From the NCBI RefSeq assembly GCF_004010195.1, contig NC_057718.1:10555181-10590946 (forward strand): a stretch of DNA of 35,766 nucleotides, read 5' to 3'. The notes under the pieces are model-generated. The model was given only the letters and a program-made list of their open reading frames with translations, ran no database searches and was not told the DNA's origin. The number at the start of each line of letters is the position of its first letter. Positions within the stretch are counted from its first letter, which is position 1. The position numbers and the translations under genes were made by a program. This document shows positions 263-35,431 of this stretch, in pieces. Origin of the DNA: Chiloscyllium plagiosum (taxonomy: Eukaryota).

Positions 263-2410
263 GTTAAAAATCACACAACACCAGGTTATAGTCCAACAGG
301 TTTATTTGGAAGCATTAGGTTTCAGAGCACTGCTCCTTCATCAGTTAGCTGTAGAGCAGAACCACAAGACGTTAAGGACAAAAGGGTAACTAGGGACAAA
401 ATAGGACCCCTCAAAGATCAGCAAGGTGGCCTTTGTGTGGAGCCGCAGAAAATGGGGGAGGTACTAAACGAGTAGTTTGCATCAGTATTTACTGTGGAAA
501 AGGATATGGAAGATATAGACTGTAGGGAAATAGATGGTGACACCTTGCAAAATGTCCAAATTACAGAGGAGGAAGTGCTGGATGTCTTGAAACACAAAGG
601 TGGATAAGTCCCCAGGACCTGATCAGGTGTACCCTAGAACTCTGTGGGAAGCTAGAGAAGTGATTGCTGGGCCTCTTGCTGAGGTATTTGTATCATTGAT
701 AGTCACAGGTGAGGTGCCGGAAGACTGGAGGTTGGCTAAGGTGATGCCACTGTTTCAGAAGGGTGGTAAAGACAAGCCAGGGAACTATAGACCAGTGAGC
801 CTGACATCGGTGGTGGGCAAGTTGTTGGAGGGAATCCTGAGGGACAGGATGTACATGTATTTAGAAAGGTAAGGACTGATTAGGGATAGTCAAGATGGCT
901 TTGTGTGTGGGAAATCATGTCTCACAAACTTGATTGAGTTTTTTGAAGAAGTAGCAAAGAGGATTGATGAGGGCAGAGCGGCAGATGTGATCCATATAGA
1001 TTTCAGTAAGGCGTTCGACAAGGTTCCCCATGGGAGATTAATTAGCAAGGTTAGATCTCATGGAATACAGGGAGAACTAGCCATTTGGATACAGAACTGG
1101 CTCAAAGGTAGAAGACAGAGGGTGGTGGTGGCTGGTAGTTTTTCAGACTGGAGACTTGTGACCAGTGGAGTGCCACAAGGATCGGTGCTGGGTCTTCTAC
1201 TTTTTGTCATTTATATAAATGATTTGGATGTGAGCATAAGAGGTACAGTTAGTAAGTTTGCAGATGATACCAAAATTGGAGGTGTAGTGGACAGCGAAGA
1301 GGGTTACTCAGATTACAACAGGACCTTGACCAGATGGGCCAATGGGCAGATGGAGTTTAATTCAGATAAATGCGAGGTGCTGCATTTTAGGAAAGCAAAT
1401 CTTAGCAGGACTTGTACACGCAATGGTAAGGTCCTAGGGAGTGTTGCTGAACAAAGAGACCTTCAAGTGCAGGTTCGTAGCTCCTTGAAAGTGGAGTCGC
1501 AGGTAGATAGGATAGTGAAGAAGACGTTTGGTATGCTTTCCTTTATTGGTCAGAGTATTGAGTACAGGAGTTGGGAGGTCATGTTGCGGCTGTACAGGAC
1601 ATTGGTTATGCCACTGTTGGAATATTGCGTGCAATTCTGGTCTCCTTCCTATCCGAAAGATGTTGTGAAACTTGAAAGGGTTCAGAAAACATTTACAAGG
1701 ATGTTGCCAGGGTTGAAGAATTTAGCTATAGGGAGAGGCTAAACAGGCTGGGGCTGTTTTCCATGGAGCGTTGGAGGCTTAGGGGTGACCTTATAGAAGT
1801 TTACAAAATTATGAGGGGCATGGATAGGATAAATAGACAAAGTTTTTTCCCTGCGGTTGGGGATCAGAACTATGAGCATAGGTTTAGGGTGAGAGGGGAA
1901 AGATATAAAAGAGACCTAAGGAGCAACGTTTTCACACAGAGGGTGGTACGGGTATGGAATGAGCTGCCAGAGGAAGTGGTGGAGGCTGGTACAATTGCAA
2001 CATTTAAGAGGCATTTGGATGGGTATATGAATAGGAAGGGTGTGGAGGGATATGGGCCGGGTGCTGGCAGGTGGGACTAGATTGGGTTTGGATATCTGTT
2101 TGGCACGGACGAGTTGGACCGAAGGGTCTGTTTCCATGCCGAACATCTTTTGACTCTATGATCTTGTAATGAGAGTACAGAGGCAGTATCTTCCTCTGGG
2201 GGTGAAGGGCAAAGCTGGAGGGGGAAGGTTGTGTTTCCATGCTGTACATCTCTATGACTCTAAGACACAGAATTTATAGCAAATTAAATTCTGTATCTTA
2301 TGGTCCTACTCCAAAATCTGGTGCTTCCAAATAAACTTGTTGAATGATAACCTGGTGTTGTGTGATTTTTAACTTTGTCCATCCCAGTCTAACACTAGCG
2401 CATCCACATC
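263..2410. mobile_element. Palindromic Penelope-derived element (arms 263-370 and 2262-2410) split by a CR1 insertion
   Basis: gttaaaaatcacacaacaccaggttat...tttatttggaagca (263-314) is the reverse complement of ~2322-2374. Same family as 14669-14806 and 18225-19527. Hammerhead-like core on the - strand at 314-344. Confidence 0.8.
371..2261 (+). mobile_element. 5'-truncated CR1 (HER1-like) LINE, decayed ORF2 reverse transcriptase + 3' UTR
   Basis: KSPGPD, NYRPVSLTS, DFSKAFDKVPH, GVPQGSVLG, FADDTK motifs with stops and frameshifts. (gactctat) tail. Apparent TSD AAGAC at 366-370 / 2262-2266. Confidence 0.95.
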
Positions 2411-2439
2411 TGGGTATCCAAATGCATAAATTTCCACAA

Positions 2440-3480
2440 CCCGCCTACCTGTGCATCCCGGATCTAATTGGTTGCTGCAGCCGTCACTAGACTCAATTGG
2501 CGGGTAAGCATTGGTCGGAAAGGTTACCAGGAAGCGGTTGAATCCCTCCAATGGGGAAGGCGGCCGGCGTTGGTCTGTCCTGCCTTCTTCAGCGCCTCGT
2601 AAAGCACGTGACATAACCGTTGATCTGCCACCACGCGCGCCTGTCTCTGACTGGTCAATATCAAGATGTCAAACTGTCGCTTAGGAGGAAGCAGGTAGCT
2701 GCGCTCCGCATACCAAACGCGTGGCGCTGATTGGATCATCCCGAAGTTGCTGTCGCCGTCACGGAGGCGAAGTGGGTTGTGCCGGCCCGGCCCTCAACCA
2801 TTTCGAGCGCTTATTGGTAGCCTGTACTGTCAGTCAAACCGTCGCCCGGGGGAGTGGGCGGAGAGGCGCGTGCAATCCCCACTCCGGATTCCTATTGGTC
2901 CGTTCCGCTGCCTGGCAAACCATCGCCCTGGGGAAGTGGGCGGGACGGCTCGTGAGCTCGAGCGAATGGAGCCGTGGTCGCCATTAAACGTGGGGCTGAG
3001 GAGATTTTAACGCCCAGGTGGGATCGAGAGGAAGAAATCGGGCGATCTTTTACGAAAGCTTCCCACATCTTCAAATGGTAGCCCCCTCAAGAAGGTAGAG
3101 CTGATTTGAAATCATCCGACCAGGAGTTGTCGGTGTTTCACCTATCCCCGCCCCCCTCCCTTCTCTCTTCATCCGGTCTCTGGGCCCTGAGTGTTTCTTT
3201 CGCCCCCCCTGTTTCGAGGGGAGAAGGAGGGGGGCGGGATGTCGGAAGGCGAAAAGACGGCCGTGGTGGCCGCAGCGGCGGACAAGGCGGCCGAGGCCAT
3301 GAACGCCGCCGCCGAGGTGGACGACGAAGAGGAGGATGAGAGCGAGGACGAGAGCGAGATCCTGGAGGAAAGTCCGTGTGGCCGCTGGCAGAAGCGACGG
3401 GAGGAGGTGAGCTCCTTTGATGACGGAGATGGATGGATGGATTGGGGGGGATGGATGGATGGGGGGGAGGGGGGGGTTGA
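2440..3480 (+). promoter_or_regulatory. CpG island / TATA-less promoter region of NRBP1 with multiple CCAAT (ATTGG) boxes and GC boxes
   Basis: CpG-rich stretch in otherwise CpG-poor DNA. ATTGG at 2467, 2496, 2510, 2730, 2813, 2894 and CCAAT near 2548. GGGCGG at ~2856 and ~2938, E-box CACGTG ~2605, YY1-like CGCCAT ~2979. Overlaps the ATG exon. Confidence 0.85.
3239..3406 (+). CDS. NRBP1: NRBP1 first coding exon (MSEGEKTAVV...EEEDESEDESEILEESPCGRWQKRREE)
   Basis: Recognisable NRBP N-terminal motif ESEDESEILEESPCGRWQKRREE. ATG at 3239 has G at -3. Ends at GAG|GTGAGC donor, phase 0. Confidence 0.95.
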
Positions 3481-3950
3481 TTAGGGGGAAGCAACCCCTT
3501 CTGAATGGGTGATCTGTCCCTCGCCTTTAACTGAAACATTTCAAACCCAAGTTTCTCCTTTTTAAAAAAAAACACGAATGCGATAAAGCTTGACAGGAGC
3601 TTGTGCCTTTGGTATCAGACTTTTTACCTTGCAAGTTGAAGACACAGGGAGGATGTGGTTGCCCCAGTGGGTTTGCAGAGTAGATTCACTAACGTGATGT
3701 CTGGGCTCTGCTGGAATTATTCATAGGGAAAGGAGTAGGCCATTCAGCCCCTCCGGCTTGTTCTGCCATTCGTGACAGTGCCCCATGCACCTGCTTTTGG
3801 CCTTCATACCTTTTGCTGAACAAGAAAAAAAACTACCTGAAATTTATTACTAATAACTGATCCAGCGTCAATTGTTATTTGTAGTAGCATGTACCAAACC
3901 TCTGCCACCCTTTCTGGGTAGGACTGCTTCCTGAAATTACTCCTGAATGG

Positions 3951-4238
3951 GTAAAAACAATAACTGCAGATGCTGGAAACCAGATTCTGGATTAGAGGTA
4001 CTGGAAAAGCACAGCAGTTCAGGCAGCATCCGAGGAGCAATAAAATCGACGTTTCAGGCAAAAGCCTTTCATCAGGAATACAGGCAGAGTGCCTGAAGAG
4101 TGGAGAGATAAATGAGAGATAAATCTCTCCACCCTTCAGGCACTCTGTCTGTATTCCTGATGCCCGAAACATCGATTTTACTGCTCCTCGGATGCTGCCT
4201 GAACTGCTGTACTTTTCCAGCACCTCTAATCCAGAATC
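3951..4238. mobile_element. 288-bp non-autonomous palindromic Penelope-derived element with 12-bp TSD
   Basis: Inverted arms 3983-4109 / 4123-4238. TSD ACTCCTGAATGG at 3939-3950 and 4239-4250. Confidence 0.9.
4046..4077 (-). ncRNA. Minimal hammerhead ribozyme-like motif (PLE type)
   Basis: Minus strand reads UC-CUGAUGA-A-AGGC-UUUU-GCCU-GAAA-CG-UC-GA. Confidence 0.6.
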
Positions 4239-4859
4239 ACTCCTGAATGGTCTGACTCTGATATTTATACCTTGCTCCCTAGTTCAAGAATCGCCAACCA
4301 GTATTTCTTTGACCACCTAGTCTGTTTGTGTTATTATCTTTGAGATCACCCCCAACCATCTAAATTCTAGAAAAACATGGCTAACTTTTATATTCTCTCC
4401 TCATAACTTAACCCTAAGTACAAGTATCATTCTTGTAAACCTACATTGTACTCCTCCCAAGGACAATAAACTGTTCCTAAGAGTTGGTGTCCAGATCTGC
4501 TGAGGGTAGTGGGGTCTAACCAGGGGTTTGTATAGCTGCAAAATAACTTGTGCATCTTTGTGCTCCAGTCTTCTCAATATAAAGGCTGGCATGCCAATAG
4601 CTGCTTTGATAATTTTCACTTGTTCATGGCATTTTCAAAACTTAAACACCTGAACTGCAAGCTTCTTTGGCTGTTTAATTTCATGCCACATAGCAAGTAT
4701 CCTTGCCTTTTTGCTTGACAAAAATGGATAAACTTGCACTTATTTACATTGTAATCTGCCTGCTGCTGTTCACCTAGTCTCTCAATATTTAGCTGTGGAG
4801 ATAGACTAGATAGGTTGGGATTGTATTCCTTACAGCAGATAATCTTTTAAGATTAATTC

Positions 4860-5750
4860 ACAATGAGGATGTCACTGGCATTTATTGCTCATCCCTAATT
4901 CCCCAGAGGGCAGTTAAGAGACAACCACATTGCTGAGAGTCTGGAGTCACATATCGGCTAGACCATATCTCCTTCCCTAAAGGACATTAGTGAATGACAT
5001 GGGTTTTCTGACAATTGATAATGGATTCATAGGTTAACAGTCCAGCAATAAAATCGCTCGGCTGTTGCCTTCCCCTTTTAAGGAAATCTTATTGAGGTTT
5101 ATGAGGTTCTGAGGAGCATGGATAGGATATGTAGAAAGAATCTTTTTACCCTTAGAGCGCTTAGCTAAAATTATTGGGGACAAAGAAATACAAGTGCTTG
5201 GGAGAATGTGAAAACAATGTACTGAGTGGAATTATGAACTATAATCATAATGAATGGTGGAGCAAGCTCACAGAGCCAAATGGCCTATTCCAGCTCTTAT
5301 TCTGTGTTTTAGGGGATTTGAGATATTTCTTTTTGTGCAGATAATGGTGGGTGTCTGGAATTTACTGCTTAAGAGGGTGGTAGAAACTGGAAACAAGGGG
5401 TATTAAACTGGATGACTAGTGGATGGTGCAGAATGATGCCAACTGTACAACTTCAATTTTTACGCCAACTGAGGCCCCCGTGAAGGTGCCGACTTTACAA
5501 CCTTGTCTATCACTTGAGGCTTGGTGACCGTCATGGTAAACTCACCACTAATTGTCTCTGTGTAATAGAATAGCAGCCCTATGGTCCTCTGGGAATATAA
5601 TGACTTTACCTCTTTAGATGAGCACTTGAAACACCACAGCATACAAGGCTATGGGCCAAGTGCTAGAAAATCAGGTTAGAACAGATAAATTCTTGAATAC
5701 CAGCATGGACTCAATGGACAAAAAAGTCTTTTTCCATACTCTGACTCTAC
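4860..5750. mobile_element. Cluster of old LINE 3'-end / SINE-like fragments
   Basis: CR1-like 3' segments (gaggtttatgaggtt...ggataggat; aaggctatgggccaagtgct) and a reverse-oriented 3' end 'ggcatttattgctcatccctaatt' related to ~13880 and ~20430. Confidence 0.5.
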
Positions 5751-7039
5751 AACTTGAAGTAGAACAAACTGATGATTTAAAACAGGCAACTCAGTATCTC
5801 TGGTTTATATCTGGGCTGTGAAAGCTCTTAATTAGATAACTTGCAAAATAGCAGAAATTAGTTGTGAATGTTTCTGCTAACTTGTTTTTTTTATCAATTT
5901 TAATTATATTACTGGCGAAACAGCATTTTTCTAATATATCTTTTACACTGCTAGCGATTGGATTCTGGTGTCATTTTTTTCACAGAAGGTGCAGCTGTTT
6001 TCAAGACATGCTTTCTTAACATCTGCCATTTCCATATATAGTCTTCAAAAGCTTGGAATATAGGCGACAGATATTCTATTTATTCCATCAAGTATGTAAT
6101 GTCAGTTTGGAATGGTGGGGAGTTTATTGGGCTTGAAATTTGTTGACAGCAGATACCCGAGATAGATACGGATATTTTACAATGGTGATTAAAACCTGTT
6201 TTTTGAGTGCAGTTGTGGAAAATTTAGTTCGCTGAATGCTAAAGGAAATCAGTTGGTCGATTTTTTTTAAAAGGTGATTTATCATTCCATTTCAAAGACG
6301 TCAACATTTTACAGAAATAATCTTGTGTGTAGTTCCAGGTTTGGAAATCCCATGCAACAAAAAGGAATTGACCCATTTATGATCCCGGTTTCCTTCCTCT
6401 GTAAAGGGTTCCTGACTTTGATGCATATGACTTTAAATTCAACTGCAGCCTGTTAGCAACCACTTCCTCGCTGAATCAGGGTTATGTAAGTAATGTTTGA
6501 GTTTCTGAACCTGGAGGTTCATCTTCAGAAAAGGCAACAACACTTTGCTGTAACTATTATTCATGCCTTCTCACCACCAGACTTGACTATTCCAGTGTTT
6601 TCCTGCTGGTTTCTCTCTCATGATTCGCATTAGCTTCTATTTTTTCAGTTTTGAATTCCTGCTCGTCGCTATTTGTTTGTGGCATCATCCCTTTCTAACT
6701 ATTGCTGCTTCCAGTTTCCCTGCTCCAATTTTTTTTTTAAGTTATTCTGGAGTTAAGGACCCTAGATAAGTGATGACATAGTTGATAATGATAGGGTGAA
6801 GGAAGAGGGATGGGGAGAGCTGACCTGTGTACTGGAGGCCAGAGTTCGAGTAACATCAAGATGTTGTATTAGGTGAGGTTACATGAGGGAGTACACCATA
6901 AAGGGATATGTATAGCAGCAAAAGTAGAAGAAATTGGTGCTGCAAGAATGTTGGTCACTCAATCAAACATCAATCACACTCCATCATAAGGTCAGAGTGG
7001 TGATGTGCAGTCACCACTCTTTGTGTCTTCTCAGACTGA

Positions 7040-7470
7040 AGCAGTCCATGTTCAGATGCAACAAGATCTGGACACTATCTAGCCTTGGGCTGAGAAATGG
7101 CAACTAACATTCACTCCACATGAATGCTAAGCGATGGTCATCTCCAATAAGAGACCATCTTATCTAGACTCCTTGATATTCACTGAACTCCCCACCATCC
7201 ACATTCTTGGAGTTACCATTGACCAAAAACTCAACTGAATTTGTCACATAAACATAGTGGTTACAAGAACAGGTCAGAGGCTAGGAATACTCTGGAGAGT
7301 AACTCGCCTCTTAACACCCCAAAGTCTGTTTACCATCTACAAGGCACCAGTCAGAAGTATGATGGAATATTCCCCACTGGCCTGGATGAATGCAGCTCCA
7401 ATAACATTCAAGAAGCTTGACGCTACTCCGGCTAAAGCAGCCAGCTTGACTGACACCACGTCATCAAACG
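7040..7470 (+). mobile_element. LINE (CR1/L2-group) ORF2 C-terminal fragment, second family
   Basis: QQDLDTI.PWAEKWQ...TIYKAPVRSMMEYSPLAW. Similar to 19580-20465. Confidence 0.75.
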
Positions 7471-7818
7471 TGGGCTCCACTCATCCCCTTATGTTCACGT
7501 CCAAAATCATTTATATAAATGCTGAAAAGTAGTGGACCCAGCACCAATCCTTGTGGTGCTCCACTATGACTATTGGTTCCTTTCCCCAAGGGTTATCAAA
7601 TTCCAATGATATCTTATCACCCCTTTTCAACAACAAAAAGGACACACAACCGCTTTGGTCTTGGAAACTCCCCCACTTTCCATAAAAGAGCATATTTATT
7701 ACCTCTCAATGTGCACCTTTTCATACTTGAACCTCACCAATTAATTTCCTACCTTTTTAAGTAGAATGAATCCAAATCGCGACAGTTTGTTGTGTCCCTT
7801 TGTATGGCGTTCGACATG

Positions 7819-8746
7819 CCACTGCACCTACAATTTTGGTGTCATCAGCCAACTTAGTGGACAGCGCAGAGGGTTACCTCAGATTACAACGGGATCTTGA
7901 CCAGATGGGCCAATGGGCTGAGAAGTGGCAGATGGAGTTTAATTTAGATAAATGTGAGGTGCTGCATTTTAGGAAAGCAAATCTTAGCAGGACTTGTATA
8001 CGCAATGGTAAGGTCCTAGGTAGTGTTGCTGAACAAAGAGACCTTGCAGTGCAGGTTCATAGTTCCTTGAAAGTGGGGTCGCAGGTAGATAGGATAGTGA
8101 AGAAGGCATTTAGTATGCTTTCCTTTATTGGTCAGAGTATTGTGTTCAGGAGTTGGGAGGTCATGTTGCGGATTTACAGGACATTGGTTAGGCCACTGTT
8201 GGAAGTTTGCATGGAATTCTGATCTCCTTCGTATCGGAAGGATGTTGTGAAACTTGAAAGGGTTCAGAAAAGATTTACAAGGATGTTGCCATGGTTGGAG
8301 GATTTGAGCTACAGGGAGAGGGTGAACAGACTGGGGATGTTTTCCCTGGAGCACCGGGAGACTGAGGGTGACCTTATAGAAGTATATAAAATCATGAGGG
8401 GCATGGATAGGATAAATAGGCAAAGCCGTTTCCCTGGGGTGGGGGGAGTCCAGAACTAGAGGGCATAGGTTTTAGGGTGAGGGGAAAGATATAACAAAGG
8501 CCTAAGAAGCAACATTTTCATGCAGAGGGTGGTACATGTGTGGAATGAGCTGCCAGAGGAAATGGTGGAGGCAGGTACAATTGCAACATTTAAAAGGCAT
8601 CTGAATGGGTGCATGATTAGGAAGGGTTTGGAGGGATATGGGCCAGGTGCTGTCAGGTGGGACTAGATTGGGTTGGGATATCTGGTGGGCGTGTACAAGT
8701 TAGACTGAAGGGTCTGTTTCTGTACTGTACATCTCGATGACTCTAT
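7819..8746 (+). mobile_element. 5'-truncated CR1 (HER1-like) LINE with a 38-nt inverted 5' segment
   Basis: Close similarity to 1285-2160. 7819-7856 is the reverse complement of the FADDTK-coding segment (cf. 1254-1290). Confidence 0.92.
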
Positions 8747-11064: not shown

Positions 11065-11786
11065 AGGTTTGCTTGCTGAGCTGGAAGGTTCATTTTCAAC
11101 ACCATACTAGGTAACATGAGTGAGCCTCTGGACGAAGCACTGCTGATGGTTCCTGCTTTCTATTTATATGTTTGGGTTTCTTTGGGTTGGTGATGTCATT
11201 TCCTGTTCTTTATCTCAGGGGGTGGTAGATGTGTCTAATTCGATGTGTTTATTGATAGAGTTCAGGTTGGAATGCCATGCTTCTAGGAATTCTCATGCGT
11301 GTCTCTGTTTGACCTGTCCTCGGATGGATGTATTGTCCCAGTCGAAGTGGTGTCCTTCCTCATCGGTATGTAAGTATACTAGTGAGAGAGGGTCATGTGA
11401 TTTTGTGGCTACCTTCGCTCACTAGTATCCTTACATACAGATTAGGAAGGACACCACTTTGACTGGGACAATACATCATCCTAGGACAGGTCAAACAGAG
11501 ACACGCATGAGAATTCCTAGAAGCATGGCATTCCAAATGGAACACTATTGACAAACACATTACTTGGACCCCATTTACCACCCCTTGAGAAAAAGAACAG
11601 GAAATGACATCACCAACCCAAAGAAACCCACACATAGAAAGCAGGAATCATCAGTAGTGCTTCGTCCGGAGGCTCACTGAAGATGTTACCTAGTATGGTG
11701 ATGAAACACCTGAAAATGAATCTTCCAACTCAGTGAGCAAACTTGCATCCAGAACCTCAACCTGAGCTACAAATCTTAAAACTTGC
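11065..11786. mobile_element. Palindromic Penelope-like element carrying the GIY-YIG C-terminal region in both arms
   Basis: Inverted arms ~11065-11393 / 11411-11744. Plus-strand EGHHFDWDNT...KQRHA*EFLEAWHS. Hammerhead-like CUGAAGA-U-GUUACC-UAGUAU-GGUGAU-GAAAC at 11677-11707. Confidence 0.85.
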
Positions 11787-12950: not shown

Positions 12951-13604
12951 AATAGGATAGTGAAGAAAATGTTTGGTATGCTTTCCTTTATTGGTCAGAG
13001 TATTGAGTACAGGAATTGGAAGGTCATGTTGCGGCTGTACAGGACATTGGTTAGGCCACTGTTGGAATATTGTGTGCAGTTCAGGTCTCCTTCCTATCGG
13101 AAAGATGTTGTGAAACTTGAAAGGGTTCAGAAAAGATATACAAGGATGTTGCCAGGGTTGGAGGATTTGAGCTATAGGGAGCGGCTGAACAGGCTGGGGC
13201 TGTTTTCCCCGGAGCGTCGGAGGCTGAGGGGTGACATTTATAGAGGTTTACAAAATTATGAGGGGCATGGATAGGATAAATAGACAGTCTTTTCCCTGAG
13301 GTCGGGGAGTCCAGAACTAGAGGGCATAGGTTTAGGTTGAGAGGGGAAAGGTATAAAAGAGACCTCGGGCAACCTTTTCACACGGAGGGTGGTACAGGTA
13401 TGGAATGAGCTGCCAGAGGATGTGGTGGAGGCTGGTACAACTGCAACATTTAAAAGTCATTAGGATGGGTATATGAATAGGAAGAGTTTGGAGGGATATG
13501 GGCCGGGTGCTGGAAGGTGGGACTAGATTGGGTTGGGATATCTGGTCGGCATGGACGGGTTGAACTGAATGCTCTGTTTTCATGCTGTACATCTCTATGA
13601 CTCT
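12951..13604 (+). mobile_element. CR1 (HER1-like) LINE 3' fragment
   Basis: LYRTLVRPLLEYCVQF...LERVQKR and the same 3' UTR/tail as the 371-2261 copy. Confidence 0.93.
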
Positions 13605-13869
13605 AAAAGAAAACAAAAATATATTTAAATAGGGGATTAGGATCTCCTCAATTCAGGGGACTCAGTCTTGTACAGTGTGCAAGTAAATAAATGATGACTT
13701 GTTGATTGGGTATCGGCCTCCTTGCAGTTATTTCAGTTCTGTATTCTTTTATATTTCTGTGAAGCACTTTAAGCTTATGCTTTATAAATAAAAAATGTAA
13801 TTAATTTGTGTTCTTTACCTTTCTGTTAAGATTTACATGTACAAAGTATAGTGTTTTTGTCCACAGAAT

Positions 13870-14668: not shown

Positions 14669-14806
14669 ACATGATTTGGAGATGCTGGTGTTGGACTGGG
14701 GTGTACAAAGTTAAAAATCACACAACACCAGGTTATAGTCCAACAGGTTTAATTGGAAGCACACTAGCTTTCGGAGCATCGCTCCTTCATCAGGTGATTT
14801 TTTTTT
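14669..14806 (-). mobile_element. 138-bp solo pLTR insertion with 11-bp TSD, nested in another PLE
   Basis: TSD AAGGATGGATG at 14658-14668 and 14807-14817. Sequence shared with 263-345 and 19430-19527. Confidence 0.88.
14762..14796 (-). ncRNA. Minimal hammerhead ribozyme-like motif, intact core
   Basis: Minus strand reads CAC-CUGAUGA-A-GGAGC-GAU-GCUCC-GAAA-GC-UA-GUG (stem I CAC/GUG, stem II GGAGC/GCUCC, palindromic AGCU stem III). Confidence 0.7.
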
Positions 14807-18224: not shown

Positions 18225-19527
18225 TAACTTAAAGATTACAGTCCAAGTTTATTTGGAAGCACTAGCTTTTGGAGTGCTGCTCCTTCATCAGATGGTAGTG
18301 GAGTATAAGGTCACAGGAGACAGAATTTATAGCAAAAGTTTACAGTGCGATGTAACTGAAATTAATGTATTGAAGAAGTCTCTCATTTTTTAGAATTGGC
18401 ATGTTGGCTTCAGTTCTTTCATATGTAAATCCCAGAACTTCCTTTTAAAGTTACATTCTCAAGTGAACTTTAACAATAGGTGCTGTGTTGACCAAGATAA
18501 TGCATTTAAGGTGTGAGGTGCCCTGTGTGAAGCTGTCTGTGCCCACATGAGTACCTCCCACCATGTACGTGGCAGGTACTCATGTGACTCTGCCAATGCT
18601 GTCTATCTCATACGCTGCAAGCAAGGATGCCCTGAGGCATGGTACATTGGTGAGACCGAGTAGAGGCTATAGCAATGGACACCACACAGCAATCAACAGA
18701 CAAGAATGTTCCCTCCCAGTCAGAACACTTCAGCGGGCCAGGACATTTGACCTCAGACCTTCGGCTGACCTCCAAGGTGGACTTTGGGACAGGCAACAAC
18801 ACAAAGTGGCCGAGCAGAGGCTGATAACCAAGTTCAGTACCCATGGGGATGGCCTCAACCAGGACCTTTGGGTTCATGTCACACTACAGGTGACCCCACT
18901 GCATTACACACTCTCTCTCACTCGCAGACAGAGACTGTCACATATCTATACCCCTTTACATTCACACTTCTACACATATACTGATCTCAGTCACACATAC
19001 TCCCCTGTGTGCGCACGCCCATGTGTACACGCGTGCACACAAGTCTGTGGGATGGATTTGTATTCGCAGAATTACATTTTATTTTGCTCAAAAACTGCAT
19101 GAATCCATGTAAGATTCTGTAAATCCCTTTTTTAGATTAGCATGAGTCTGAACATTGGGGCACAGCCTCACACAGGGCATCTTACACCTTTTTAATGTAT
19201 TAAGTACCATGTTGGCCCAGATATTGTTAAAGTTCACTTGAGAATGTAACTTTAATAAAGTTTTGGGATTTACATATAAAAGAACTGAAACCAACATGCC
19301 CATTCTAAAATATGAGATACTTAACAAACAATAAGGTCTTTTTCGATATATAATTTCAGTTGCATCATACTGTAAACTTTTTTTCCTATAAATTCTGTAT
19401 CCTATGATCTTATACTCCACAAGTACCTGACAAAGGCACAGCGCTTCGAACGCTAGTGTTTCCAAATAAACCTGTTGGACTATAATCTGGTGTTGTGATC
19501 TTTAACTTTGTACACCCCAGTCCAACA
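18225..19527 (+). mobile_element. Penelope-like element: inverted pLTR + GIY-YIG fragment + pLTR, 12-bp TSD
   Basis: TSD TATTTAGATTAT at 18213-18224 / 19528-19539. Inverted arms ~18240-18548 / ~19153-19480. 18562-18660 translates HVRGRYSCDSANAVYLIRCKQGCPEAWYIGETE (GIY-YIG: VY...YIG). Decayed hammerhead cores at 18260-18291 (-) and ~19427-19458 (+). Confidence 0.9.
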
Positions 19528-22149: not shown

Positions 22150-22705
22150 GCGTTGTCGAACAAAGAGACCTAAAAGGTGCAGGTACTGAACTTAGTTCTT
22201 TGAAAGTAGCATCACCGAAGAAGGCATTTAGCAAGCTTACATTCATTGGTCAGAGCTTGGCGTACAGGGTTTGGAGTGTCATGTTACAGCTGTACAAGGC
22301 ATTGGTAACACCACATTCGGAGTATTGCGTACAACTCTAGTTGCACTGCTGTAGGAAGGATATTATTAATATTTACAAGGATGTTACTGAGTCTGGAAGA
22401 TTTTAGTTATAAGGAGAGGCTGGATTGCATGGGACTTATTTCCCTGGAGAGTCGGAGGCTGAGGGGTGACCTTATTAGAGGTTTTATAAAGTCATGAGGT
22501 ATGTAGTAAGGTGAATAGCCAAGGTCTTTTCCCCTGTGCACGTGAGTCCAAAACTAGAGGGCATAGGTTTAAGATGAGAGTGGAAAGATTTAAAAGGAAT
22601 CTGAGGGGCAACATTTTCACGCAGAGGCTGGTGCATTTATGGAATGGGCTGCTAGAGGAAGTGGAAGAGATGGGTACAATTCCAATATTCAAAAGACATA
22701 TGACT
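22150..22705 (+). mobile_element. Older CR1 LINE fragment
   Basis: LQLYKALVTPHSEYCVQ and KTRGHRFK...FTQRLVHLWNGL. Confidence 0.85.
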
Positions 22706-24886: not shown

Positions 24887-24894
24887 GTACCCCA

Positions 24895-25319: not shown

Positions 25320-25720
25320 TCTGTAGGGAGAGGCTGAATATGCTGGGGCTGTTTTCCCTGGAGCATCGGAGGCTGAGGGGTGATCTTTATAGAGGTTTAT
25401 AAAATCGTGAGGGGCATGGATAGGATAAATAGACAAGGTCTTTTCCCTGGGGTTGGGGATTCCAGAACTAGAGAGCGTAGGTTTAAGGTGAGAGGGGAAA
25501 GATTTAAAAGGGACTTAAGGGTAACATTTTCACGCAGGAGGTGGTGCTTGTATGGAATGAGCTGCCAGAGGAAGTGGTGGAGGCTGAAACAATTAGAACA
25601 TCTGGATGGCAATATGAATAAGTAGGGTTGACAGGGATTTGAGCCAAGTGCTGTCAAATGTGAATAGATTAAATTAGGATATCTGATCGGCGTAGGTGAG
25701 TTTTTGTGCCGTACACTCCT
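25320..25720 (+). mobile_element. CR1 (HER1-like) LINE 3' fragment
   Basis: IEVYKIVRGMDRINRQGLFPGVGDSRTR. Matches the other copies. Confidence 0.9.
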
Positions 25721-25734
25721 GATGCTATTACTAT

Positions 25735-26055
25735 TAGATTAGATTCCCTACAGAATGGAAACAGGCCCTTCGGCCCAACATGTCCACACCAACCCTTTGA
25801 AGAGTAACCTTCGCAGACCATTCCCCCACCCTCTATTTACCCCTAACTAATGCACCTGACACTCTGGGCAATTTTTAGCATGGCCAATTCACCTGACCCA
25901 CGTATCTTTGGATTGTGGGAGGAAACCGGAGCACCCGGAGGAAACCCACGCAGACAAGGAGAAAGTGCAAACTCCACACAGACAGTCGCCCGAGGTGGAA
26001 ATTGAACCCGGGTCCCTGGCTCTGTGAGGCAGCAGTGCTAGCCACTGTGCTGCCC
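25735..26055 (-). mobile_element. HE1-like tRNA-derived SINE, near full length
   Basis: Minus-strand A/B boxes, central ggtttcctccgggtgctccggtttcctcccac domain, LINE-derived 3' end. Confidence 0.92.
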
Positions 26056-28014: not shown

Positions 28015-28137
28015 GTGAATCAACGCAATGTTCCTGGGATTGACAGTGCATACCTGGCAATGGACACAGAGGAGGGAGTAGAAGTTGTGTGGAATGAAGT
28101 CCAGTTCTCAGAAAGAAAAAATTTTAAACTGCAAGAG
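28015..28137 (+). CDS. NRBP1: NRBP1 coding exon 2 (VNQRNVPGIDSAYLAMDTEEGVEVVWNEVQFSERKNFKLQE)
   Basis: Polypyrimidine tract + ctag acceptor, 123 nt open frame, GAG|gtgaag donor. Pseudokinase N-lobe: degenerate Gly loop, VVWNE in place of VAIK. Absent from the ORF track. Confidence 0.96.
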
Positions 28138-28668
28138 GTGAAGATAACACTCAAATATTTAAATATGAAAAGCTAATGATTGTTCCTGCATTTGTTAACT
28201 TTAATACACTCAGTCCTCATTATCCATTGATATGCTATTCATGGATCCACACACTCATGAGGTTGGCCACAGATTGCATTTCTGTCTCTTTCCCATTATC
28301 TCATACGTTCTACCTTGGTCAACCAATTTTGCGGTTCTTCATGGTGTATAGGAGTGATATCTGCATTTATTGTCTGGTTTATTGTTAACCATGTGAAGTC
28401 AGTGTCCTATCCCTTGTGGATGATGAGGACTGGGTGTTGGTTTTTCTTTTGAAGTTAAGTATCATTGTAAGAATTGCAAGATCATTGCAAGAATTTTTAA
28501 ATCATTAAAAAAATTTAGGTCTCAAGCTTTAAATGATTTTACATGGAATGTCCAAGCAGTTTCTAACGACTAGACTTTTCCTTTCCGCGCTCCTTTCAAT
28601 TTTGGAAAAGTGGTAAAGGCATAAATCAAACTTGTTACCATTCTGATGAGTGTACTTTTGTTTCTTAG

Positions 28669-28770
28669 GATAAGGTAAAGGCTGTCTTTGACAATCTCAT
28701 CCAGCTGGAGCACCTGAACATTGTGAAATTTCACAAGTATTGGGCAGATGTGAAAGAAAATAAAGCAAGG
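28669..28770 (+). CDS. NRBP1: NRBP1 coding exon 3 (DKVKAVFDNLIQLEHLNIVKFHKYWADVKENKAR)
   Basis: tttcttag acceptor, 102 nt, AGG|gtaagc donor. AVFDNLIQLEHLNIVKFHKYWAD matches NRBP1 rather than NRBP2 as I recall the two sequences. Confidence 0.96.
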
Positions 28771-29104
28771 GTAAGCTGTCTTGATGCTGATTGATGTTTT
28801 TGTTACTCGACCTGACAATTATTTTTCCAGTATCTAATATGAAATTTTAAAATTGTTACATAGACTTTTTTTATACTTGTGACTGATCAATCTTTGGCTG
28901 AATTTTTTTCAGTCCTTAGTGTGCAGATATTTCATGATTAAGAAATGTTTAACAGTTCCAAACATGCTACCTTATGGTTAATATTGAAAAAAAATATTTA
29001 AGAATATAATAGAAGCAAAGTAGTCAAAGTCCATTGAATACAAAGGAAAATTAAGCCACCTTAATTTGCATCCATTGCAGTAAAGAATTTTTTTTTATTG
29101 TATC

Positions 29105-29346
29105 AGAGTCCTAGAGATGTACAGCGTGGAAACAGNCCCTGAGGTCTCTTTTATATCTTTCCCCTCTCACCCTAAACCTATGCCCTCTAGTTCTGGACTC
29201 CCTGACCCCAGGGAAAAGACTTTGCCTATTTACCCTATCCATGCCCCTCATAATTTTGTAAACCTCTACAAGGTCACCCTTTAGCCTCTGACTCTCCAGG
29301 GAAAACATCCCCAGCCTGTTCAGCCTCTCCCTGTAGCTCAAATCCC
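29105..29346 (-). mobile_element. CR1 LINE 3' fragment in NRBP1 intron, with an apparent internal gap at the N
   Basis: SYRERLNRLGMFSLE...RTRGHRFRVRGERYKRDL on the minus strand. The tail is joined to the body at the ambiguous base 29136. Confidence 0.9.
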
Positions 29347-29463
29347 AGAGATTTGGGAGACAAAAGCTAAATGATGGGAATTAAGTTTTGTATTGAAAGC
29401 ACATTTGCTAAAAATATTTGGAGTTGCTGAAGGGATTATTAATGTATATTTATGTTCCTGCAG

Positions 29464-29553
29464 GTTATATTTATAACGGAATACATGTCATCAGGAAGCT
29501 TAAAACAGTTTTTGAAGAAAACTAAGAAAAACCACAAAACTATGAATGAAAAG
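29464..29553 (+). CDS. NRBP1: NRBP1 coding exon 4 (VIFITEYMSSGSLKQFLKKTKKNHKTMNEK); gene continues beyond the window
   Basis: ttcctgcag acceptor, 90 nt, AAG|gttggt donor. Hinge region and basic KKTKKNHK segment of NRBP1. Confidence 0.96.
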
Positions 29554-29801
29554 GTTGGTTGCAGATTAGTTTACAAACATTTGGGGTGGCTTGGCTGTAT
29601 TTTTGCTACTTTTGCAGGGCATATTTATGAGCTGCTGCTGAAAGATTCTGTGGTTCTTTAGGTCATCTGGACAGCACATGGAGTTAATGTCTGAGGTGCT
29701 CTTATTTGAAGTATACATCTGTTCAAATACTCGTGCACACATGCTTAATTATTGCAAATGCGTCTAAGTGCAACTTACTATGAGGTGGAACATATGTGGC
29801 A

Positions 29802-31843
29802 GAGGATAACAAAGAGAGAAATAAGGAAGGAGAGGATCAAATATGAAGGTAGGCTAGCCAGTAATATTAGAAGTGATAGTAAAAGTTTCTTTCAATACAT
29901 AAACGACAGGCAAAAGTAGACATTGGATCACTTCAAACTGATGCTGGAAGGCTAGTGATGGGAGATAAGGAAATAGTTGGAGAACTTAATAATTACTTTG
30001 CGTCAATCTTCACAGTGGAAGACATGAGTAATATCCCAACAATTAAAGGGAGTCAGGGGCTGAGTTGAGTATGGTTGCCATTACAAAAGAGTGTGTGCTA
30101 GAAAAGCTAAAAAGTCTAAAAATTGACACATCTCCTGGCCCTGATGGGCTACATCCTAGAGTTCTGAGGGAGGTGGCTGAGGAAATAGTGGAGGCGTTGG
30201 TTGAGCTCTTTCAAAAGTCACTGGAGTCAGGGAAAGTCCCGGATGATTGGAAGATCACTGTTGTAACCCCATTGTTCAAGAAAGGATCAAGACAAAAGAT
30301 GGAAAATTATAGGCCAATTAGCCTAACCTCAGTTGTTGGTAAAATTCTAGAATCCATCGTTAAGGATGAGATTTCTAAATTCTTGGAAGAGCAGGGTCGG
30401 ATTAGAACAAGCTGAAAATGTGTTGCTGGAAATTCCTAAAGAAGGGCTCATGCCCGAAACGTCGATTCTCCTGCTCCTTGAATGCTGCCTGACCTGCTGC
30501 ACTTTTCCAGCAACACATTTTCAGCTCTGATCTCCAGCATCTGCAGTCCTCTCTTACTCCTCAGATTAGAACAAGTCAACATGGATTTAGTAAGGGGAGC
30601 CCGTGCCTGACAAACCTGTTAGAATTCTTTTGAAGAGGTGACAAGTAGGTTAGACCAGGGAAACCCAGTGGATGTAGTCTATCTGGACTTCCAAAAGGCC
30701 TTTGAAAAGGTGCCACACGAGAGGCTGCTGAGTAAGGTGAGGGCCCATGGTGTTCGAGGTAAGCTACTGGCATGGATTGAGAATTGGCTGTCTGACAGAA
30801 GGCCGAGAGTTGGGATAAGAGGTTCTTTTTCGGAATGGCAGCCGGTGACAAGCGGTGTCCCACAGGGTTCAGTGTTGGGGCCACAGCTGTTCACGTTATA
30901 TATTAATGATCTGGATGAAGGGACTGGGGGCATTCCAGCGAAGTTTGCCGATGATACGAAGATAGGTGGGCAGGCTGGTAGTACTGAGGAAGTGGGGAGG
31001 CTGCAGAAGGATCTAGACAGTTTGGGACAGTGGTCCAGGAAATGGCTGATGAAGTTCAATGTGAGCAAAGAATACAAGCATGGACTACTTTCTAAACGGT
31101 GAGAAAATTCATAAAGCCAAAGTACAAAGGGATCTGGGAGTGCTAGTCGAGGATTCTCTAAAGGTAAACATGCAGGTTGAATCCGTGATTAAGAAAGCGA
31201 ATGCAATGTTGTCATTTATCTCAAGAGGGTTGGAATATAAAAGCAGCGATGTGCTACTGAGACTTTATAAAGCTCTGGTTAGGCCCCATTTGGAGTACTA
31301 TGTCTAGTTTTGGGCCCCATACCTCAGGAGGGATATACTGGCACTGGAGCATGTCCAGCGGAGATTCTCACGGATGATCCCTGGAATGATAGGTCTAACA
31401 TACGAGGAACGGCTAAGGATCCTGGGATTGTATTCATTGGAGTTTAGAAGGTTCAGGGGAGATCTAATAGTAACTTACAAGATAATACATGGCTTGGAAA
31501 GGGTGGACGCTAAGAAATTGTTTCCGTTAGGTGGGGAGACTAGGGCCCGTGGGCACAGCCTTAAAATTAGAGGGGGTCAATTCAGAACAGAAATGCGGAG
31601 ACGTTTCTTCAGCCAGAGAGTGGTAGGCCTGTGGAATTCATTGCCGCGGAGTGCAGTGGAGGCCGGGACGCTAATTGTCTTCAAGACAGAAATTGATAAA
31701 TTCTTGATGTCACAAGGAATTAAGGGCTACGGGGCGAATGCTGGTAAGTGGAGTTGAAATGCCCATCAGCCATGATTAATTGGCAGAGTGGACTCGATGG
31801 GCCGAATGACCGTACTTCCACTCCTATGTCTTATGGTCTTATG
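29802..31843 (+). mobile_element. 5'-truncated CR1 LINE (different subfamily), decayed ORF2 + (tcttatgg) tail
   Basis: SPGPDGLHPRVL, NYRPISLTS, YLDFQKAF, GVPQGSVLGP, FADDTK. Possible short TSD TGGCA at 29797-29801 / 31842-31846. Confidence 0.95.
30412..30563 (+). mobile_element. 152-bp Penelope pLTR insertion with short inverted 5' piece and 12-bp TSD, nested in CR1
   Basis: TSD GATTAGAACAAG at 30400-30411 / 30564-30575. 30412-30432 is the reverse complement of 30504-30524. Hammerhead-like CUAAAGA-A-GGGC-UCAU-GCCC-GAAA-CG-UC at 30436-30463. Confidence 0.9.
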
Positions 31844-32170
31844 GCACAGTGGTTCAGTGATTAGCATTGCTGTCTCTCAGTGCCAGGGACCCGGGTTCAA
31901 TTACAACATCTGGTGACTGTCTGTGTGGAGTTTGCACACTCTCCTCGTGTCTGCGTGGGTTTCCTCCCACAGTCCAGAGATATGCAGATCAGGGGAATTG
32001 GCCATGCTAAATTGCCCATAGTGTTCAGGGATGTGTAGGTTAGGTGCATTAGTCAGGGGTAAATGTGGGATGGTGGCGTGGGGGAGTGAGTCTGGGTCGG
32101 TTGCTCTTTGAAGGGTCGGTGTGGACTTGTTGGGCCAAAGGGTCTGTTTCCATGCTGTAGGGATTCTAAT
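31843..32170 (+). mobile_element. HE1-like tRNA-derived SINE
   Basis: A box (tggttcagtgattagc), B box (gggttcaatt), conserved body and CR1-like 3' end. Confidence 0.9.
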
Positions 32171-32559
32171 TCGAAGAAATATACACTTCTCCACCTTCTA
32201 CTCCATTCATGTGCTGGTGTTCATTTGGATACACTTTGAATGTACTATTAGTATTTTGGTCAGGCCATTTTTGGGCAACTTTTGCCTTTCCGAAGTGGAC
32301 ACACCAGGAAATAAAATATAGGAATGGAGAAGGAAAGCATTTGAGATAATTTTGATGTATTGGATATGTGAATTTCCAGCATACCATGGCTGAAGTTGAA
32401 AATCTATTTTATGTGGATATATCATTGACTTGACAGGGGACCTGTCTCACTGAAATAGAGGCGGTCACAACTTCAGTGGTTTTGGATGAAAGTAAGTGCA
32501 ACAGGGTATCAAGCTAGTTTTGAGATTAGAGCTCTGTTTGGTAGGGCTGTAGTAGAGGA

Positions 32560-32790
32560 GGGCGACTTGTACCCAAAACCTATTAGCAAAAGAACTGGAA
32601 GTGATATCACCCACCACAACAAACCAAGGCACATAAGTAAAAGCGGGACAGTATACCAACGCTTCAACGGAGGCTTACAGATGATGATACCTAGCGTGGT
32701 GATGAAACGTCTGAGAACAAACCTTTCAGCTCAGTGATCAAACTTGCAACTTGAACCACAACCTGAGCTACAAATCTTCACAAAAATCGC
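32560..32790 (+). mobile_element. Penelope pLTR 3' fragment, related to 11560-11786
   Basis: ggaagtgatatcacc...cagatgatgatacctagcgtggtgatgaaacgtctg...caacctgagctacaaatctt. Confidence 0.7.
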
Positions 32791-32829
32791 AATTACCCTG
32801 TCTTTTCTGCATTGTGAAGTTAGCTTTTA

Positions 32830-33770
32830 GCGTCATAGCTGTCCAGTATGAAACAGACCCTTCAGTCCAAATAGTCCACGCTGAACAAGTTCCCAAAACA
32901 AACCATATATTTGGCCCATATCCCTCCCAAATTGAAATGTCTTTTAAATGTTGGAATTGTACCCGCATCCACCACTTCCTCTAGCATTCCACATAAGAAC
33001 TACTGTGTTTTTTAAAAAAAGTTAGCCCCCAAAACCTTTAAGTTTTTTCCTGTCATCTTAAAAAATGTCCTCTAGTTTTGAACACTCACCCTTGGGAAAA
33101 GATCCTTGCTATGCACCTTATCTATGTCCCTCCTGATTTTATAAACCTCGACAAGGTCACCTCTCATCCTCCTATGCTCAAGAAAGAAGTCCCAGCCTAT
33201 CCAACTGTTCTCTATACCTCAGGCTTCCATTTCTGGTAAATCCTTTCGAAACCTGCTCAAATTTAATATTCTTCCTATATCAGGGCAACCAGAATTGTAT
33301 ATTGAACTCAAGAAGCCTCACCAAAGTACTCAATATGATGTCCCAACTCCTATCCTCAGATGTTTGAGCAGTAAAGGCAAGCATGGTAAACACCACCTTA
33401 ACCACCCTGTCTACATGTCATGCAAATTTCAAAGAACTATGTACTTAAACTCCTAGGTTTCTCTGTTCTACAACATTATCCAGGGCCCTGCCATTAATTG
33501 TACAAATCCTGCCCTTGTTTGTTTTATCAAAATGCAATACCTCTCATTTTTCCACATTAAACTCCAACTGCTACTCCTCAGCCCATTGACCCAGTTGATC
33601 AATATCTCTTTGTAATCTTAGATAACCTTCTTCTCTATCCACTATACCACTGATTGTGGTCTCAACCACAAACTTAATAGCCATCCCCCCCTAAGTTCTC
33701 ATCCAAATATATAAAGGACAAACTAAAGTGGACTCAGTACCAACCCCTGTGGAACACCACTGGCAACAGT
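32830..33770 (-). mobile_element. Older CR1 LINE fragment, reverse orientation
   Basis: Reverse complement of GVPQG (cccctgtggaacaccactgg) through to the 3' UTR (gaaacagacccttcagtccaa). Confidence 0.85.
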
Positions 33771-34078
33771 CCACCAATCCAAATGAGCTTCCTAATAATA
33801 AAAGGAACAATCGAGGTAACTGAATTATTCAAGGATATTAATCGTATTTGTATTAGTAGTGATTCTGCTGAAGCCAAGTGAAATAAAAGTAGTAAGTGCT
33901 GGCAAAACTCAACAGGTCTATCAGTATCTGTGAAGAAATAAACTAGGTTAAGATGGAATGTAATTAAATTCTTCTTTAGAAAAACCGCATTGAAGATGCG
34001 GTGAGGATAAGCTTGTAATCAGGTGCAAGACAGCCTTCAGTCACTGTGGTTGTGTTTGCCGAGCTGGAAGTTTTTGTT

Positions 34079-34118
34079 GCAAACGTTTCGTCCCCTGGCT
34101 AGGCGACATCATCAGTGC
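34079..34118 (-). ncRNA. Minimal hammerhead ribozyme-like motif in pLTR
   Basis: GCA-CUGAUGA-U-GUCGCCU-AGCC-AGGGGAC-GAAA-CG-UU-UGC. Confidence 0.7.
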
Positions 34119-35391
34119 TTGGGAGCCTCCTGCGAAGCGCTTCTTTGATGTTTCCTCCGGTGTGAATAGTGGTCTGTCCCTGCCGCTTCCGGTTGTCAGT
34201 TTCAGCTGTCCGCTGTAGTGGTTGGTATATTGGGTCCAGGTCGATGTGTTTGTTGATGGAGTTTGTGGATGAATGCCATGCTTCTAGGAATTCCCTGGCT
34301 GTTCTCTGTCTGGCTTTCCCTATGATAGTAGTGTTGTCCCAGTCGAATTCATGTTGCTTGTTGTCTGCGTGTGTGGCTACTAAGGATAGCTGGTCGTGTT
34401 GTTTCGTGGCTAGTTGATGTTCATGTATGCGGCTTGTTAGCTGTCTTCCTGTTTGTCCTATATAGTGTTTTGTGCAGTCCTTGCATGGTATTAGTTTTGC
34501 TCATGTTGGGTATCGGGTCCTTCGTTCTGGTGAGTTGTTGTCTGAGCGTGGCTGTTGGTTTGTGTGCCGTTATGAGTCCTAGGGGTCTCAGTAGTCTGGC
34601 TGTCAGTTCCGAGATGCTCCTGATGTATGGTAATGTGGCTAATTCTTTTTGTTGTGGTATGTCCTCGTTCCGTGGTCTTTCTCTTAGGTATCTGTTGATG
34701 AAGTTGCGCGGGTATCCATTTTTGGCGAGTACCTTGTATAGGTGTTCCTCTTCTTCTTTTTGCAGTTCTGATGTACTGCAGTGTGTTGTGGCCCTTTTGA
34801 ATAGTGTCCTGATGCAGCTTCGTTTGTGTGTGTTGGGGTGGTTGCTTTCATAGTTTAGGACTTGGTCTGTGTGTGTGGCTTTCCTGTATACCCTTGTAGT
34901 GAATTCTCCGTTCGGTGTTCTCTGTACCATCATGTCTAGGAATGGGAATTGGCTATCCTTTTCTTCTTCTCTCGTGAATCGGATTCCTGTGAGTGTGGCG
35001 TTGATGATCCGGTGTGTTTTTTCTATTTCCGTGTTTTTAATGATTACAAACGTGTCTGACCCAGAGTTTGGGTTGAATTTGTGGTAGGACTGTTTGTTCT
35101 AACCTTTGCATAACTGCCTCTGCTATGAGTCCCGAGATTGGTGATCCCATGGGTGTTCCGTTGATTTGTTCGTATATCTGGTTGTTGAATGTGAAGTGTG
35201 TTGTGAGGCACAAGTCCAGTAGTTTAAGTATGCCGTCTTTGTTGATAGGTTCAGCGTCCTGTTTTCTGTTCTGTATGTCCAGTAGGTTGGCTATTGTTCT
35301 GTATGTCCAATAGCCAACCTACTGGGCATACAGAACAGAAAACAGGACACCGGAGGAAACATCAAAGAAGCGCTTCGCAGGAGACTCCCAA

Positions 35392-35431
35392 GCACTGATG
35401 ATGTCGCCTAGCCAGGGGACGAAACGTTTGC
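35392..35431 (+). ncRNA. Minimal hammerhead ribozyme-like motif in inverted pLTR (sense to NRBP1)
   Basis: Identical to the 34079-34118 motif, on the opposite strand. Confidence 0.7.

Follow-up and report, generated by a model that had tools for sequence, protein, structure and literature searches.

A 35,766-nucleotide stretch of the genome of the shark Chiloscyllium plagiosum (contig NC_057718.1, positions 10,555,181 to 10,590,946; hereafter the window) carries short motifs with CUGANGA and GAAA boxes in several of its repeats, and the question it raises is whether these are hammerhead ribozymes (HHRs), of what kind, and in which elements. The initial annotation, made from the sequence alone, proposed that one minimal hammerhead core recurs in several Penelope-type repeat families with covarying stems, and that an extra core base makes it a dimer-dependent variant overlooked by canonical descriptors. 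Our analysis makes it very probable that the motifs are minimal type-I hammerheads (min-HHRs) near the 3' end, in the pseudo-long terminal repeat (pLTR), of Penelope-like retrotransposons (Penelope-like elements, PLEs). This class was defined by Cervera and de la Pena in 2014 and occurs in Xena, Poseidon and Neptune of fishes (PMC4209133). Its emergent features are a base between positions 9 and 10.1, a G10.1-C11.1 pair, a palindromic 15.2-16.2 segment and families "full of covariations" (PMC4209133).

Each of the 10 sites quoted in the initial annotation was re-read and contains what was reported there. Sites were grouped into families by their flanks: in family A the palindrome is AGCU and stem II is GGAGC/GCUCC; family B, together with B', an older relative, has ACGU and a stem II of 6-7 bp; and family C has ACGU and stem II GGGC/GCCC, with subfamilies C1 (CUGAAGA, loop UUAU), C2 (CUGAUGA, loop UUUU) and C3. 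Three copies are intact min-HHRs by the published definition. The family A copy at 14762-14796(-) has stem I CAC/GUG, CUGAUGA, an extra A, GGAGC-GAU-GCUCC, GAAA, AGCU and A at H17, and scores 65.3 bits with a covariance model (CM) of its own family. The two family B copies, at 34079-34118(-) and 35392-35431(+), are identical to each other, with ACGU, U at H17 and one G.G mismatch in stem II. The family C copy at 4046-4077(-) deviates from the intact form solely by A-U in place of G-C at 10.1-11.1.

The motifs occur well above chance. The pattern CTGATGA-N4-30-GAAA matched the window five times against a shuffle mean of 1.26, a count of five being reached in 1 of 100 shuffles. We then used a descriptor made of CUGANGA, one extra base, a stem II of at least 4 bp directly after the core, and GAAA, on an unbiased sample of 200 kb of random genome plus the window. 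It gave six matches in the window and 20 in the random genome, and none in either sequence when reversed; the same descriptor lacking the extra base gave one and four, against zero and three in the reversed window and reversed 200 kb. Since the reversed controls contain no one-extra-base form, the extra base is genuine and regularly present. Seventeen of the 20 random-genome matches could be assigned to a family (six to A, ten to C and one to B').

The core is conserved position by position. The unpaired nucleotide between A9 and G10.1, which had been described as a consistent extra A or U, is present in all 40 distinct family copies: A in 22/22 copies of family A and 15/15 of family C, and U in 3/3 of family B. 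The catalytic boxes C3-U4-G5-A6-N7-G8-A9 and G12-A13-A14 are kept in the consensus of A, B and C, with U or A as N7, and H17 is never G in a family consensus (A in 21/22 family A copies; C or U in 15/15 of family C and 3/3 of family B). Positions 10.1-11.1 form G-C in 19/22 copies of A, 13/15 of C and 1/3 of B; the remaining copies have G.U, or A-U at window 4046-4077, and family B among the genome matches listed reads G...C. Helix III is absent. At its position stands the palindromic tetranucleotide seen earlier in the intact copies: AGCU in 19/22 copies of family A, ACGU in 10/15 of family C and in one of three of family B (the intact window sequence), the two B' copies reading AUGU and ACAC. 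Departures from the palindrome are single changes, mostly at CpG. Stem I is shortest in C, at 2 bp, and has 3 bp in families A and B.

Exact core patterns were also searched across the window's own 3.56-Gb assembly, with reversed patterns as the control and the counts taken as lower bounds. The family A pattern matched at least 16,625 times and the family C pattern at least 86,254 times, each against 0 for the reversed pattern; a pattern in which 10.2 is not G (B, B', D and variants) matched at least 18,594 times against 180. The three patterns are disjoint, and the genome therefore holds at least 121,473 core-intact motifs (180 in the controls). Among the genome matches listed are also a family D (GAGUC-AUCUA-GACUC) and a C subfamily with GAGC/GCUC.

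Copies of one family mostly decay neutrally, so that the informative comparisons of the stems lie between lineages. In stem II, the 10.2-11.2 pair is G-C in A and C and U-A in the B lineages; 10.3-11.3 is A-U in A, G-C in C, and U-A, U.G or C-G in the B lineages; and 10.4-11.4 is G-C in A, C-G in C and A-U in the B lineages (G.G in one). In stem I, 2.1-1.1 is C-G in A and C and A-U in the B lineages; 2.2-1.2 is A-U in A, U-A in C and C-G in the B lineages; and 2.3-1.3 is C-G in A, unpaired (mostly U.U) in C, and G-C, C-G and U-A, one each, in the three copies of the B lineages. Within family C, 45 copies with A at 10.2 were counted by hand among the first 100 matches listed. Sixteen of them have a UUUU loop, and in these 11.2 is C in 16/16 and U in 0/16, an A.C mismatch that is simple decay. 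In the copies with other loops, 11.2 is U in 21/29; these A-U copies mark a subfamily in whose source a compensatory change of both bases became fixed. On the strength of the pairs that differ between families and of this compensated subfamily, the claim that stems I and II change around a constant core and still pair holds, between families and between subfamilies.

The covariation is read from the descriptor parse and from hand counts. MAFFT aligned the three families together without opening any internal gap, which makes that alignment non-structural. A CM built from family A found 21 family A copies at E <0.01 in 235,766 bases and scored C and B at about 11 bits. RNAcofold of two copies paired only the palindromic stem II between molecules, which is uninformative for a double hammerhead.

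We next consider the elements that carry the motifs. Their assignment to Penelope-type repeats, at PLE 3' ends, is borne out by an open reading frame (ORF) for a reverse transcriptase (RT) and a GIY-YIG endonuclease, located 5' of the motif and on its strand: in the window for family B, in locus L038 for family A and in locus L013 for family C. The 5'-truncated family B ORF at 34105-35297(-) aligns, from 35297 to 34105, to residues 57-462 of P0001, an uncharacterised 463-aa protein of Chiloscyllium punctatum, with 85-89% identity, and its homologues show RVT_1 and, after it at the C-terminus, GIY-YIG (P0008, E 1.8e-4; P0073, E 1.2e-9), the domain order of PLEs. The TAG stop of this ORF falls in loop 2 of the HHR at 34079-34118(-), and the N-terminus (residues 2-40) of a homologous 656-aa protein is encoded through the same HHR in another frame; the family B motif is thus embedded in two overlapping reading frames. 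Here an AUG is formed by A9, the extra U and G10.1. The B' HHR at 11677 is also preceded by an endonuclease C-terminus, and the same holds in loci L003 and L022.

In long family A copies, the motif is separated from an endonuclease C-terminus remnant by a CA-rich stretch and about 430 nt of non-coding DNA. Locus L038(-) retains an open frame of 355 aa that includes YIDDIF, a CX4CxxC linker and a block resembling GIY-YIG (VVYLISC...YIGE), and the HHR lies 340 nt downstream of it. This frame is colinear with the B-type protein P0015 by BLAST (E 1e-15), and PLE homology of the A-type was shown in this way because Pfam recognised no domain in A-type ORFs. A homologue search with the decayed window ORF 18551-19099 gave none, and a Pfam GIY-YIG search of the shark's own genome gave one marginal match among 150 scored of 14,403 candidates. 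In L013(-), about 200 nt separate the end of the ORF from a C2 HHR downstream; the ORF's homologues from C. punctatum and Rhincodon typus, P0090 and P0091, combine RVT_1 with GIY-YIG and are colinear with the B-type P0008 (E 1e-12 and 2e-8). The HHR accordingly overlaps the ORF stop and the next ORF start in B and lies a few hundred nucleotides downstream of the ORF in A and C. A CX2-5CxxC linker is found in A-type and C-type proteins and in none of the B-type. PMC8557442 describes this zinc-finger linker in the PLE clades, and by its presence or absence A and C resemble Neptune/Nematis, and B/B' Penelope/Poseidon. The window holds at least three PLE lineages, which belong to two clades.

In a search with the B-type protein, the next-best matches after sharks were in parasitic flatworms (Spirometra, Sparganum, Opisthorchis and Trichobilharzia; 44-50% identity), in a word-seeded ranking that is not a phylogeny. 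The protein P0086 is annotated as MAP3K7 isoform X3 of C. punctatum; its last ~160 residues match the PLE endonuclease region, with 84-89% identity to window 34180-34648(-), and a terminal exon derived from a PLE has probably been taken into this gene model.

Several individual copies in the window are core-dead, and the others vary in completeness. The copy that holds the intact family A HHR is cut off on its 5' side immediately before the motif, with a tail that extends to ~14660. A second family A motif, at 314-344(-), has lost stem I, reads ACCU for AGCU and has U at 11.1 (CM 52.4 bits). A longer family A copy at 18550-19527(+) consists, in order, of a PLE endonuclease C-terminus remnant (18550-18810), the CA-rich stretch, the ~430-nt non-coding pLTR, the HHR and the tail; its HHR, at 19421-19461(+) and first quoted as ~19427, is decayed by G8 to A. 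The inverted, 5'-truncated partner of this copy, at 18233-18536(-), carries at 18260-18291(-) an HHR in which G12 has become A and stem II contains a C.A mismatch. A further family A copy, at 2270-2410(+), keeps the upstream pLTR and the tail, and its HHR segment is gone; the gap runs from directly after the core CUG to directly before the stem I GUG. In family B', the PLE 3' end at 11218-11777(+) has endonuclease C-terminus fragments head to head, from 11415 to 11218(-) and from 11419 to 11585(+). They are followed by a decayed HHR at 11677-11707(+), with CUGAAGA, G.U at 10.1-11.1 and the non-palindromic ACAC, and by a 3' tail. The other B' copy, at 32585-32778(+), has a decayed HHR at ~32678-32714(+) with U4 changed to A and 10.2 to A. 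Family C is represented by the C2 copy at 3963-4079(-), which contains the HHR at 4046-4077(-); by its inverted partner at 4157-4222(+), which lacks the 5' half of stem II; and by a C1 copy at 30432-30547(+), whose HHR at 30436-30463(+) has G5 changed to A and reads CUAAAGA.

This C1 copy is nested within a remnant of a long interspersed nuclear element (LINE) RT at 30047-31099. We considered the C copy at 30436 as the pLTR upstream of the RT at 30623 and rejected it; the RT is LINE-type (FADDTK) and is interrupted by the C insertion, at about 30412-30623. The RVT_1 matches at 873-1739 and 30623-31099 are both LINE-type enzymes unrelated to the motifs. A LINE family whose RT carries YINDL...FADDTK recurs at least seven times in the window (1162-2159, 7855-8746, 12952-13605, 22217-22703, 25321-25693, 29138-29345 and 32931-33763) and is unrelated to the hammerhead repeats.

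We compared these motifs with the published min-HHRs. As in those, the shark motifs share the CUGANGA and GAAA boxes, the unpaired base, G10.1-C11.1 and a palindrome without helix III; they have a short helix I without a defined loop 1 and stand at PLE 3' ends; and they show compensatory changes among consensus families, opposite-strand pairs (100-700 bp apart in the published set) and thousands of mostly solitary copies (PMC4209133). The anatomy matches all four emergent features, which counts for the min-HHR reading. Among the differences, the host is an orectolobiform-like shark, and the closest proteins are from C. punctatum. Helix II is shorter in shark A (5 bp) and C (4 bp) than in Schistosoma (7-8 bp), and helix I has 2-3 bp against 4-5 bp in published min-HHRs (PMC4209133). 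The at least 121,473 shark copies compare with about 4,000 in coelacanth and about 9,000 in Xenopus (PMC4209133), numbers obtained with different descriptors and not strictly comparable.

A further parallel is PAc, a Poseidon element of Anolis carolinensis (PMC11167929). As in PAc, the family B HHR is at the junction where the ORF starts, the AUG comes from A9-U-G10.1, the predicted cut site lies ~25 nt past this AUG and a tail follows the motif; unlike in PAc, loop 2 of the shark motif also contains the stop of the preceding ORF copy. Priming on both strands, as described for PAc, fits the inverted pairs in the shark.

Canonical models do not find these motifs: cmscan with the Rfam hammerhead models (types I, II and III, HH9 and HH10), applied to the whole window and to two short pieces of 71-76 nt, gave no match, whether at gathering score or with E as high as 10. 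The Rfam families share the catalytic core nucleotides with the shark motifs; the helix III and the loops that the models expect are absent here. An extra A between A9 and G10.1 was reportedly described by De la Pena and Flores in 2001 in the (+) hammerhead of chrysanthemum chlorotic mottle viroid. The shark motifs have their extra nucleotide at the same place in the core; unlike them, the viroid ribozyme is type III, with full helices, tertiary contacts and no relation to a retrotransposon. The prediction that canonical models would miss the extra-base form therefore stands for Rfam. The same form does not stand as a new variant, since it is the already published min-HHR, for which a descriptor was built to find exactly this form (PMC4209133). 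Our literature search found no paper on hammerheads in shark PLEs; sharks are unmentioned in the main texts, and supplements were outside its scope.

The insertions that carry the motifs are PLE-like in architecture. According to PMC8557442, PLE insertions are strongly truncated at the 5' end, form partial tandems, end in a 3' tail and have next to them an inverted copy that is itself 5'-truncated. In the window, families A, B, B' and C each form a head-to-head inverted pair; in family B, the arms at 35347-35565, which contains the HHR at 35392-35431(+), and 34163-33945 (219 bp) are 97.7% identical. Pairs less than 2 kb apart were counted among the first 100 sites listed in each genome search. 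Among these matches, family A gave nine head-to-head (-,+) and two tail-to-tail (+,-) pairs, the search with 10.2 not G six and one (one mixed-family pair excluded), and family C six and one, a total of 21 head-to-head against four tail-to-tail (one-sided binomial ~5e-4, calculated by hand). A few same-strand pairs are 2.4-2.6 kb apart, the spacing expected for pLTR-ORF-pLTR. In BLAST alignments, copies stop at fixed distances past the motif.

Some of these inverted structures have other signatures. Rfam gave weak microRNA-like matches at the E-value threshold and none at gathering score: mir-4716 (41 bits) at 11327-11477, MIR6462 at 4071-4161 and mir-4774/mir-4520 at 35250-35359. The first two are long hairpins from head-to-head PLE insertions, and the third is a palindrome adjoining the family B junction. 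The 219-bp inverted repeat of family B outruns the genome-repetitive part by ~100 bp (33945-34044 and 35466-35565), DNA contig depth there is near single copy or zero, and RNA reads depart from the window sequence at 35465-35467 into a different, canonical-looking tail; a low-copy segment seems to have been duplicated in inverted orientation flanking the family B insertion. A tRNA-like short interspersed nuclear element (SINE; GGCACGGTGGCACAGTGG...GGGTTCAATTCC) splits the family A tail in locus L007 at about 1350-1450(-); it is also present at window 25944-26031, where Rfam gives a weak mir-1296-like match.

Whether the motifs act as ribozymes in the animal is a separate matter, and the alternative that survives best, itself unlikely, bears on it. 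It holds that the HHR and tail are kept mainly as a cis element for internal initiation by the PLE RT, or as a point of RT stopping or template switching, that self-cleavage is marginal or absent in vivo, and that short HHR-plus-tail units behave as SINE-like parasites of PLEs. When full-length-like queries were aligned by BLAST to the unbiased 236 kb, copy 5' ends fell within about -12 to +6 of CUGANGA in 13/26 alignments of A, 27/50 of C1 and 27/45 of C2, at or just upstream of the core box and not at the cut site. The simple insertion L017(-)9027, which has a 13-bp direct repeat (target duplication), starts inside the core box, and many family C copies are inverted dimers with their junction at the motif. 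For Anolis Poseidon, PMC11167929 further reports that hammerhead mutants leave insertion in vitro unaffected, that the start of reverse transcription is internal and that the cut site is not the end of any RNA-seq read; PMC8557442 reports that PLE clades without hammerheads proliferate well. Part of the clustering, however, is an artefact, because subfamilies share only the motif and tail and cross-subfamily BLAST matches begin there, although in individual cases genuine ends and inverted junctions do lie at the core box. The cause of the clustering could be RT stalling, template switching at stem II or the alignment artefact. Strict conservation of the catalytic nucleotides across deeply diverged PLE clades, with N7 limited to U or A, is in turn what a ribozyme predicts and a protein-binding site does not, and PLE hammerheads cleave in vitro as dimers or with protein (PMC4209133; PMC11167929).

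A bolder version, to which we give somewhat less credence still, is that the HHR-plus-tail module (~100-150 nt) has become independent as a SINE-like parasite on two or more PLE clades, with more than 10^5 copies, and serves chiefly to signal RT entry and RT stopping or template switching, and not as a nuclease. It would explain why 5' ends and inverted junctions occur at the core box and none at the cut site, and, if it were true, the ribozyme core would be kept for a structural or protein-binding role.

Much less probable is that the motifs belong not to PLE 3' ends but to non-LTR retrozymes, tandem arrays of ~170-400 bp whose transcripts are circular RNAs. A 2026 preprint (10.64898/2026.07.22.740005) does find retrozymes in the one chondrichthyan it sampled and derives them from PLE pLTRs, and families A and C have short non-coding forms. 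Against this, Tandem Repeats Finder detected no tandem arrays in the window; genome sites among the matches listed are dispersed and in inverted pairs, with few same-strand neighbours; and canonical retrozyme hammerheads have a helix III and loop-loop contacts detectable by Rfam, features absent here. Finally, chance look-alikes, in which CUGAUGA and GAAA boxes happen to flank a hairpin in abundant SINE or LINE tails, are barely credible: the motif is short, stem I has 2-3 bp, Rfam gives no match and high copy number alone reflects only repeat amplification, but the same architecture occurs with different stems in PLE lineages whose proteins are only ~23% identical, reversed-sequence controls of the extra-base descriptor gave 0 matches, the consensus keeps all core positions, G10.1-C11.1, the palindromic tetranucleotide and an H17 that is never G, and the LINE RTs in the window are separate elements.

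Several observations weigh against the conclusion that these are PLE min-HHRs. Copy 5' ends at the predicted cut site number 0/26 alignments for A, 1/50 for C1 and 0/45 for C2; the genomic copies carry no cleavage footprint. RNA was sampled from the raw reads of one poly(A) single-cell run with the same species label, about 2% of which was read. A total of 521 reads were placed on 33900-35700; they are strand-biased, and the bias flips between the two inverted family B arms, which fits sense-strand transcripts if the first mate is antisense and speaks for the min-HHR reading. No pile-up of read starts or ends was seen on 33900-35700, a weak test in a low-depth poly(A) library, and in this the result agrees with the Anolis report (PMC11167929). 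Stem I is very short (2-3 bp), stem II of family B contains the G.G mismatch, the covariation comes from a descriptor parse and hand counts rather than a formal test such as R-scape, and the link of family C to a PLE ORF comes from the single locus L013. In four of six C1 copies inspected (loci L017, L028 and L038), runs of N start some 90-170 nt 5' of the HHR; in L028 they separate two inverted C1 copies.

The min-HHR reading accommodates the decay of the copies as follows. Most of them are 5'-truncated insertions, individually decaying neutrally; the truncated copies retain the motif only because of its position ahead of the tail, ~40-120 nt from the 3' end, and it is selection on the few source elements that keeps pairing and core constant from family to family. 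With helix III missing, two motifs, from tandem units or from separate transcripts, would pair through the AGCU or ACGU palindrome to form a double hammerhead, predicted from the literature to cut 3' of H17. Such activity would probably be weak and protein-assisted. A dimer model, with weak activity in vitro that requires the dimer, was put forward for published min-HHRs (PMC4209133), and the dimer evidence is reviewed in PMC6765202. Dimer cleavage of a PLE min-HHR is also said to have been reported by Lunse et al. in 2017.

What is new here is the host, the presence of two PLE clades with the same architecture in one genome, the very high copy number and the lack of a genomic cleavage footprint. 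Two practical warnings follow for annotation: an Rfam-based approach misses all of these motifs, and inverted PLE junctions score as weak microRNA-like hairpins. The shark data restate the known question of what PLE hammerheads are for and add no new one. A cartilaginous fish with a very large min-HHR load extends the known range of PLE hammerheads, and within its genome two PLE clades keep the same minimal architecture with different stems.

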